Origin: a virus | Strand: one strand, 5' to 3' | IMG/VR virus record: IMGVR_UViG_3300042090_002000 | Location: 1 to 64,000 of that record | DNA: 64,000 nucleotides | In this document: in pieces, positions 21,801-22,907 of the stretch | Layout of the letters: each line of letters begins with the position of its first letter | Numbering within the stretch: position 1 is the stretch's first letter | Notes under the pieces: model-generated | Databases searched by the model: none | The model's input: the letters and a program-made list of their open reading frames with translations, nothing else | What the model was told of the DNA's origin: nothing | Position numbers and translations under genes: made by a program

Positions 21801-21829
21801 TTGACACCTTTTCGTGGATGTAGTAGGAT
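21801..21829 (+). promoter_or_regulatory. sigma70 promoter for the ncRNA/tmRNA operon
   Basis: TTGACA-17-TAGGAT. Confidence 0.75.
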
Positions 21830-21835
21830 CGCGGT

Positions 21836-22044
21836 GTCGGACCTACTCACGGGGATGCCACCGCCATCAGGACGTGCATAACGACCGGATGGCAAGCGTA
21901 CCGTTAACTGCGACTTGAAGGTGTCTCCCTGAGTAGGCCTGACTGGTGGAGGTGAAATGGTTCCACTGGGATGTTCGTCGGTCACTGAACCAAGCCATGC
22001 ATGCATGAAACTCATCCGGTCTGCTGCCGAACATCCCAGTGGGG
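21836..22044 (+). ncRNA. Unidentified structured RNA (two long stem-loops)
   Basis: Stem A 21836-21943; stem B 21961-21977/22028-22044; begins at the predicted TSS. Confidence 0.55.
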
Positions 22045-22046
22045 CC

Positions 22047-22396
22047 GTTTCGCTCCGAAAGTTACGCTCGTAGAAAGGTCATGACTGCCTAAGTGGAAGG
22101 GAGTTCAACTCTCCCCCGATCCACCCGATGAGTGATGCGCCATGGGTTTCGTGAAACCCGCCATCTGTTTGTGATCACTCATTCGGTGGGTCGGACGGGT
22201 TTCGACACATAGGTCGAGAAGTGACGCTAGTTCGAGTCGAAGTGAACGCGACGTAATCGCGTATCAAACGATAGACGCCAAAACTAAAATGGCTAAGGTC
22301 CTTGCGTTCCCAGCAATGCGAACTGTGGCTCCGGCCCGACAGTTTGCGCTGGCTGCGTAAGAGCCGCCCGGGAGTGGCCGAAAGCTGCTCCCGGGA
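22047..22396 (+). ncRNA. ssrA: Circularly permuted (two-piece) tmRNA
   Basis: T-arm GGGAG-TTCAACT-CTCCC and acceptor 3' strand CCGATCC-A-CC (22099-22125) precede the 5' strand GGGTCGG-ACGGGTTTCGAC (from 22188); G3:U70 pair; tag 22277-22360 AKTKMAKVLAFPAMRTVAPARQFALAA*. Confidence 0.9.
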
Positions 22397-22406
22397 TTTT
22401 AATTTT

Positions 22407-22907
22407 ATGACAAAAAGTCTTGCAAAACAGAAAGAGTACCGCGACCGGCGAACTGCTGCCGGAATTTGCGTTGCTTGTGGTGGGTTATTATCAAGGAAGA
22501 CCGTGATTTGTGCATCGTGTCAAGAAACACGCAATACGTATCGTCGTACTCGTCGAGCAGATCGCAAGAAAAAAGGGTTGTGTCCAGAATGTGGTGAGGT
22601 TGCTCCTAATGGGCGCACATACTGTTTGGATTGTGTTTTTCTGCATAGACTGGATTTATTAAAATTATCGCCTGAAGAGACGGAGCGAGCCGTTAAGGCA
22701 TGGAATTCATTTCAGGGCGCATGCGAGTGTTGTGGGACTACTCAACCGCCAAAGCGGGGCTGGTTTATGGATCACGATCACAAAGCGAAAAAATTTCGAG
22801 GGATTATATGTCAATTTTGTAATACAGGATTAGGGTATTTTTTCGACGATGTGACCAAACTTCACGCCGCAATCGAATATATAAAAAGGAGTCAAAATCG
22901 TGCCTAG
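22407..22907 (+). CDS. Endonuclease VII-type homing endonuclease
   Basis: Zn-finger repeats; CECC...MDHDHKAKKFRGIICQFCNTGLG. Confidence 0.85.
   Translation: MTKSLAKQKEYRDRRTAAGICVACGGLLSRKTVICASCQETRNTYRRTRRADRKKKGLCPECGEVAPNGRTYCLDCVFLHRLDLLKLSPEETERAVKAWNSFQGACECCGTTQPPKRGWFMDHDHKAKKFRGIICQFCNTGLGYFFDDVTKLHAAIEYIKRSQNRA

Follow-up and report, generated by a model that had tools for sequence, protein, structure and literature searches.

Does a wetland phage carry a working tmRNA gene whose two halves stand in reversed order, and where did that order come from? The question is raised by a locus in a 64,000-nucleotide stretch of DNA (the window; positions 1 to 64,000 of IMG/VR virus record IMGVR_UViG_3300042090_002000), in which a preliminary description, made from the letters alone, had proposed a permuted two-piece tmRNA with a long tag. 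The virus record is 77.7 kb long and encodes portal, adaptor, and terminase homologues. We found that positions 22066 to 22400 of the plus strand form a circularly permuted two-piece tmRNA gene on this wetland phage; the two-piece tmRNA is real and well supported, and its anatomy and conservation indicate that it is probably functional.

Gene order and anatomy of the locus

Gene calling and covariance models, which the preliminary description had named as checks, agreed with its reading. ARAGORN called a permuted tmRNA (its tmRNA* class) at 22034-22451 with the tag AKTKMAKVLAFPAMRTVAPARQFALAA followed by a stop, identical over all 27 residues to the tag first proposed. A search of the whole window with the Rfam family RF04321 (tmRNA_permuted; gathering threshold, 47 bits) matched 22066-22360 at 57.1 bits (E value, 1.9e-8), and the models of the individual permuted lineages (RF01849, RF01850, and RF01851) stayed below threshold. 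The whole tmRNA region folds with a z score of -5.8 relative to shuffles. The RF04321 score is not decisive alone, since one-piece tmRNAs score 50 to 65 bits too: across 151 sampled Pseudomonadota genomes, the genuinely permuted genes scored 113 to 162 bits, and 12 matches at 50 to 65 bits (L360 to L371; tags such as ANDEHYAPVLAAA) were one-piece tmRNAs by ARAGORN. Thus, the verdict of a permuted gene rests on the explicit anatomy, the permuted call by ARAGORN, and covariation. The same result exposes an annotation pitfall, in that an RF04321 match of 50 to 65 bits may be an ordinary one-piece tmRNA and the gene order needs checking. The features of the locus are as follows.

21801-21829 (+): sigma70-like promoter (TTGACA, 17-nt spacer, TAGGAT; 10/12 in a consensus scan), with a predicted start near 21836
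21836-22065 (+): structured 5' leader, transcribed with the tmRNA; long hairpins, the motif UGGUGGAGG at 21944-21952, fold of -115.9 kcal/mol
22066-22125 (+): acceptor piece; helix-2 5' strands at 22066-22095, T-arm, CCGAUCC, discriminator A, CC
22126-22187 (+): intervening segment of 62 nt; in the fold a hairpin continuing the acceptor stem, predicted to be removed in maturation
22188-22276 (+): 5' part of the coding piece; GGGUCGG, GGGUUUCGAC, helix-2 3' strands at 22206-22237, hairpin at 22243-22266, AUAGAC resume context
22277-22360 (+): tag reading frame; resume codon GCC at 22277, 27 codons, stop codon UAA at 22358-60
22367-22400 (+): intrinsic terminator; 12-bp GC-rich stem with a 5-nt loop (22367-22395), then AUUUU; marks the 3' end of the coding piece

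Within the tRNA-like domain, the 3' portion precedes the 5' portion, and the intervening segment separates the two. The T-arm at 22099-22115 (GGGAG-UUCAACU-CUCCC) has a 5-bp T-stem and a 7-nt T-loop and is followed by the 3' acceptor strand CCGAUCC (22116-22122), the discriminator A (22123), and CC (22124-25). The 5' acceptor strand GGGUCGG follows at 22188-22194, preceded by a U at position -1 of the coding piece, and pairs with CCGAUCC at 7/7 positions, G3:U70 included; GGGUUUCGAC occupies 22197-22206. Downstream of the tag, no T-arm and no acceptor strand were found, and the terminator is followed there by a protein gene. The base after CC is C, so that the terminal A of CCA is not encoded and maturation depends on a host repair step. 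The hairpin at 22243-22266 sits at the position of PK1 and is supported as a hairpin only, not as a pseudoknot. A cofold of the two predicted mature pieces gave 27 intermolecular pairs, and Rfam identified no riboswitch in the window. The preliminary description had anticipated most of this anatomy, namely, the acceptor piece upstream of the coding piece, a hairpin of about 61 nt extending the acceptor stem, the intact G3:U70 determinant, the recoverable helix-2 pairings, the 27-residue tag ending in FALAA, the GC hairpin and T tract after it, and the unencoded terminal A, and each of these was recovered with the coordinates given here.

A homologous permuted gene (71.1 bits; 27-residue tag AKRKLAQVIAFPGVFAVASARPQALAA) was found on a 74.9-kb contig, G005, whose flanking genes are common with those of the window at 36 to 62% identity. 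The G3:U pair is also present there, and the intervening segment, not conserved in sequence, still forms a stem-extending hairpin. A perfect TTGACA with a 17-nt spacer likewise precedes the homologous genes in G005 and in a second relative, L168. The distance from the -10 element to the first helix-2 segment, P2a, is 236 nt in the window, 59 nt in G005, and 80 nt in L168.

Several further observations were made around the gene. The window leader is about 175 nt longer than the leaders in G005 and L168, the extra part (21836-22056) forming a very stable double hairpin. A 38-codon frame at 21957-22073 (+) begins with an ATG 4 nt past the GGAGG of the leader motif and closes at a TAG within the acceptor piece's part of helix 2; it has no obvious equivalent in G005 or L168 and may therefore be a chance frame. 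Within the intervening segment, a terminator-like hairpin of 7 pairs at 22143-22160 (+) is followed by CCAUCUGUUU. The protein gene that begins 7 nt after the terminator (22407-22907 [+], 166 amino acids) encodes a zinc-ribbon-like N terminus and an Endonuclease VII domain (Pfam PF02945; E value, 6e-14); its conservation at this site does not extend to G005 or L168, and it may thus be a mobile nuclease.

Relatives, covariation, and RNA-library contigs

The gene belongs to a lineage of soil and wetland podophages with a common terminase and portal. The permuted genes L168 and L182 encode a 32-amino-acid tag, and L139 is a further family member; the terminases and portals of the phages carrying L168 and L139 are 26 to 48% identical to those of the window phage, so the gene tracks the phage lineage. 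Among isolated phages, the window terminase and portal have distant homologues, the best being those of Tunturiibacter phage Tunturi_3 (about 24% identity). This cultured phage of Acidobacteriota also carries a permuted tmRNA gene (63.3 bits; PP885686.1 88172-88396 [-], corresponding to L029 1501-1725 [-]), with the acceptor strands GGGCUUG/CAAGUCC-A-CCA, a 26-nt spacer, GUC as the resume codon, and a tag, about 29 residues long, with the C terminus AQFATMLAA. The Tunturi_3 gene is absent from the GenBank annotation, received no ARAGORN call, and is not mentioned in the paper describing the phage, which reports three tRNAs only. Both Tunturi_3 and its host are cultured, and processing, tagging, and any effect on fitness are thus directly testable.

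Searches by similarity outside this family returned little. The gene and 20 kb around it gave no blastn match among INPHARED phages, exact or over-specified IUPAC patterns retrieved G005 alone or nothing from IMG/VR, and, when the window was compared with other tmRNA loci, flanking genes were common to G005 only. Distant relatives reached through the neighboring 492-amino-acid protein were without a tmRNA. A scan for the permuted motif in bacterial genomes (the genome_contigs collection, one genome per species) gave no near copy, its four hits being chance matches in coding sequence. Two routes to the host were tried and rejected: the best matches of the GroEL protein were about 40% identical and came from unrelated bacteria, and the T-arm/acceptor pattern returned mainly unrelated matches in diverse bacteria.

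Comparison among the relatives revealed covariation in the structure and constraint on the reading frame. Between the window and G005, the acceptor stem differs by three two-sided compensatory pairs and keeps G3:U. Across four long-tag genes, 88% of cells in helix 2 pair, compared with 29 to 43% in shifted controls, and two-sided changes occur in all four segments, P2a to P2d; homologues with compensatory changes come from four related phages, Tunturi_3 among them. Differences between the window and G005 tags fall 9/5/14 on codon positions 1/2/3, an excess at the third position. Furthermore, a strain variant present in one RNA run and one DNA run carries A22245G and T22264C together; the two bases form a pair in the hairpin that precedes the resume codon, and the change from A:U to G:C preserves it. 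The same variant has two changes in the tag, one synonymous and one from L to I, the I being the residue found in G005. These substitution patterns show the tag frame to be under coding-like constraint.

The tmRNA sequence is also present, as assembled contigs, in two wetland metatranscriptome runs. Contig X4 of one run covers 22069-22406, almost exactly from helix 2 to the terminator, and the other run yielded contigs at 21850-22060 (211 nt of leader) and 22156-22306; these contigs indicate presence only, because an assembly shows neither ends nor strand and may include DNA carry-over, and uncovered stretches carry no meaning. DNA contigs bridge the 22060/22069 boundary, and the start of an RNA contig at 22069 faintly suggests processing at the junction of leader and acceptor piece. 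One contig spans the intervening segment and can thus represent a precursor at most.

Origin of the permuted order

Permuted tmRNAs of alphaproteobacteria, betaproteobacteria, and cyanobacteria have lineage models of their own, and the window gene is closest to the beta model, with all scores below threshold. The alpha model (RF01849; threshold, 50 bits) had no hit on the window at an E value of 10 or less, and the cyanobacterial model (RF01851; threshold, 70 bits) had none on the window gene and a partial match of 26.4 bits in G005. The T-loop GGCGGUA was found in 19/27 sampled alpha genes, and the window, beta, and phage genes have UUCRANY. Close identity to an alphaproteobacterial ssrA, which the preliminary description said would reduce the novelty of the locus, was not found, since the alpha model did not match and no bacterial near copy was recovered.

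A first tree (61 rows and 154 columns, without one-piece genes and with all IMG/VR sequences picked by the same T-arm string) split alpha genes from beta and phage genes at 100/100 and placed the phage permuted genes in one clade beside the beta genes. For later trees, 17 one-piece phage genes and 11 one-piece bacterial genes were added, and the selected columns were then dropped. In these trees, the genes of the window, G005, L168, Tunturi_3, and L139 clustered with a pair of one-piece phage genes (97/83*) within a larger group in which one-piece phage tmRNAs predominated, and thirteen other phage permuted genes with ANDEKFALAA-like tags stayed near the beta genes. Filing the gene as beta derived from the first tree was therefore overturned by adding one-piece genes and removing the selection columns. 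Forcing all non-alpha permuted genes together cost 33 and 22 log-likelihood units (p-AU of 0.10 and 0.07), a result that is suggestive, and not significant, against a single non-alpha origin of the permuted order; all trees were built without cyanobacterial sequences. The phylogenetic comparison with known two-piece lineages that the preliminary description had proposed thus places the gene apart from alpha, and its placement relative to beta varies with sampling.

Additional beta-type permuted motifs were seen in Burkholderiaceae and Oxalobacteraceae (Cupriavidus L053, L067, and L090; Herbaspirillum L086 and L099; Undibacterium L072). Several of these lie on very small scaffolds, and the first tree placed L067, whose tag is ANDEKFALAA, as sister to the phage clade; the motifs may be prophage-borne second copies. 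In Dechloromonas sp. ARDL1 (G007:C1), two permuted matches adjoin on opposite strands of one chromosome, at 3974388-3974617 (-) and 3974770-3974971 (+), with 159.9 and 113.2 bits.

Two readings of the origin have to be weighed. According to the first, a betaproteobacterial-type two-piece ssrA was captured once by phages and has since diverged, so that no separate permutation took place and the gene works as a functional ssrA. Such a capture would account for the full-length alignment of the beta model (RF01850) to G005 (51.5 bits) and Tunturi_3 (45.6 bits), although these scores remain below its threshold of 84 bits and the window match is partial at 29.2 bits. Common blocks (CCACC-AAG-GCA, GGUUUCGACA, the PK1 stem, and CCAUAAA-GCCAA) and a common architecture, with no pseudoknots 2 to 4 and the terminator directly after the tag, point the same way. 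The terminal A of CCA is unencoded in 60/64 bacterial beta genes, as in the window, but CCA is encoded by 4/5 family members. The tree without one-piece genes puts all phage permuted genes with beta, and a single non-alpha permuted clade is not rejected; however, once one-piece phage tmRNAs are included, the family groups among them and not with beta. Capture is further disfavored by the leaders of 59 to 236 nt, as the beta model has its promoter directly before helix 2, and by family tags that are unlike ANDE[RQ]FA[ILV]AA. Taken together, we regard capture from beta as plausible, at somewhat less than an even chance.

Alternatively, the lineage of the window phage, G005, L168, L139, and Tunturi_3 may have permuted its tmRNA independently of the alpha, beta, and cyanobacterial lineages, starting from a long-tag one-piece phage tmRNA, with a stub of the pseudoknot domain carrying UGGUGGAGG persisting as the 5' leader. 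The motif was found in 3/3 close relatives (window, G005, and L168) and in 0/22 other phage, 0/50 beta, and 0/25 alpha genes; it lies in leaders at 21944-21952 of the window, at about 1154-1164 of L011, and at about 6120-6131 of L168, and these leaders are otherwise unalignable. It recurs in the last pseudoknot region of L191, a one-piece phage tmRNA with a 30-residue tag, where its distance from the T-loop is similar (82 nt, against 70 and 89 nt). Comparison of the leader with the post-tag regions of one-piece genes gave a single match of 10 to 12 nt, that in L191; a leader that is the remnant of a pseudoknot domain would fit this single 12-mer. No terminase or portal match linked carriers of one-piece tmRNAs with the window phage, a null result that is uninformative because the carrier records are 6 to 84% complete. 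We put an independent permutation forward tentatively, as slightly less probable than capture from beta. If true, it would strengthen the case for repeated switching of tmRNA gene order in phages. Apart from the question of origin, the motif has a GGAGG core and includes UGGUGGA, which is fully complementary to UCCACCA, the invariant 3' end of the acceptor.

Function and comparison with known systems

Whatever its origin, the gene is probably a functional, phage-encoded, circularly permuted ssrA gene, judging from its completeness and its conservation across related phages. In the mechanism we propose, transcription by the host sigma70 RNA polymerase would run from the promoter at 21801 until the terminator at 22400, giving an RNA of about 565 nt. 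Maturation would involve cleavage by host RNase P before G22188 and, on the acceptor piece, trimming of the 3' end to ACC, after which the CCA-adding enzyme would supply the missing A. Pairing in the acceptor stem and in helix 2 (27 intermolecular pairs predicted) would keep the two RNAs in one complex, which host AlaRS would charge through G3:U70. No SmpB gene was found in four phage records, the complete Tunturi_3 genome included, so the tmRNA must use host SmpB, which, together with EF-Tu, would bring the charged tmRNA to stalled ribosomes. Translation would resume at GCC 22277, appending Ala and 27 residues that end in ALAA, an ending predicted to be of the protease-recognition type. The likely benefit is that ribosomes would be kept free while mRNAs are destroyed during infection. 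A role in topping up ribosome rescue fits the early-type promoter, the complete tag frame, and the dependence on host SmpB; redirection of tagged proteins by the phage's own tag would fit them equally well. The hypothetical role in countering mRNA- or tRNA-cleaving defenses, suggested in the preliminary description, would be compatible with such a rescue function.

A different function is conceivable, in which the RNA would be a decoy, its tRNA-like domain titrating SmpB away from the host machinery and thereby blocking trans-translation. This has been proposed for the tRNA-like-domain-only gene of mycobacteriophage DS6A (PMC4131195), and a phage RNA would indeed have to compete for the host protein, given that the phage records searched lack SmpB. 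Against a decoy stand the conserved context of the resume site, the preservation of the 27-codon frame in G005, and the long frames, with LAA at their ends, that L168 and Tunturi_3 have retained. Moreover, the tag differences favor third codon positions, the variant changes are conservative, and covariation extends through helix 2 and the region before the resume codon, which together make the decoy improbable. Least credible of all is a functionless remnant, such as a host ssrA fragment from imprecise excision or an attachment-site copy: ssrA fragments are known in prophages integrating into ssrA (PMC9004378), but this gene is complete with its own promoter and terminator, no bacterial genome of the one-per-species collection has a matching permuted motif, and compensatory evolution extends across phages at only 24 to 48% terminase/portal identity.

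Two-piece tmRNAs are a documented class among phages. In the survey by Buchholz et al. (2022; PMC9004378), 402 of 18,146 phage genomes had tmRNA genes, representing 133 unique forms; 53 of the 133 were two-piece, and 50 of these 53 came from marine or aquatic phages. At the 103 loci from our scan of IMG/VR with a T-arm pattern, ARAGORN made 32 permuted and 24 standard calls. Given these counts, the premise of the preliminary description that phage tmRNAs are mostly one-piece is overstated. A 2025 tmRNA database holds 79 phage sequences and, for Acidobacteriota, lists 1589 standard, 0 alpha, and 5 'beta' tmRNAs among 2144 genomes. The new elements here are thus a soil and wetland branch of the class, the long tags of this branch, and its occurrence in a cultured phage whose host phylum has one-piece tmRNA. 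The known range of phage two-piece tmRNAs, mostly marine or aquatic so far, now extends to soil and peat phages, and Tunturi_3, like Melnitz, carries the two-piece form though its host phylum, Acidobacteriota, uses the one-piece form. A permuted tmRNA on another IMG/VR phage contig (L165, 2893-3346 [-]) has two tRNA-like genes within its 154-nt intervening segment, between the 3' end of the acceptor and the 5' acceptor strand.

One close parallel is with the phage two-piece tmRNAs of the OM43 phage Melnitz, the pelagimyophages, and the cyanophages (PMC9004378), which, like the window gene, are complete permuted ssrA genes on lytic-type phages with an early sigma70-type promoter. They also encode a tag of their own and need not match the type of the host's own tmRNA. 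Those genes are, however, mostly from marine or aquatic phages, are of alpha or cyano type, and in some cases are accompanied by a glutamine riboswitch, whereas the present family comes from wetland and soil phages, and the window gene is matched by neither the alpha nor the cyano model, encodes a tag of 27 residues, and is preceded by a long structured leader. The beta two-piece tmRNA (RF01850; Dechloromonas, Azonexus, and Thauera of the Rhodocyclaceae) resembles the family in its UUCRANY T-loop and in the surroundings of the resume codon. It differs in that module identity is about 48 to 50%, with family scores of 29 to 52 bits against the threshold, and in its 10-residue tag and 24- to 50-nt spacer, compared with 27 residues and 62 nt in the window; furthermore, the present family is phage carried, and at least one of its phages infects a phylum with one-piece tmRNA. 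The alpha two-piece tmRNA (Caulobacter type, RF01849) has the same permuted order and pieces joined by the acceptor stem and helix 2, but it has a noncanonical T-loop, extra structure after the tag, and ANDN-type tags, in all of which the window gene differs. One-piece phage tmRNAs (the mycobacteriophage Bxz1 group [PMC4131195] and L191, L142, L173, and L128) resemble the window gene in the tRNA-like domain and the 5' region, and several have long tags of 21 to 30 residues; they keep the standard order with a pseudoknot domain after the tag, where the window gene has the permuted order and ends in a terminator.
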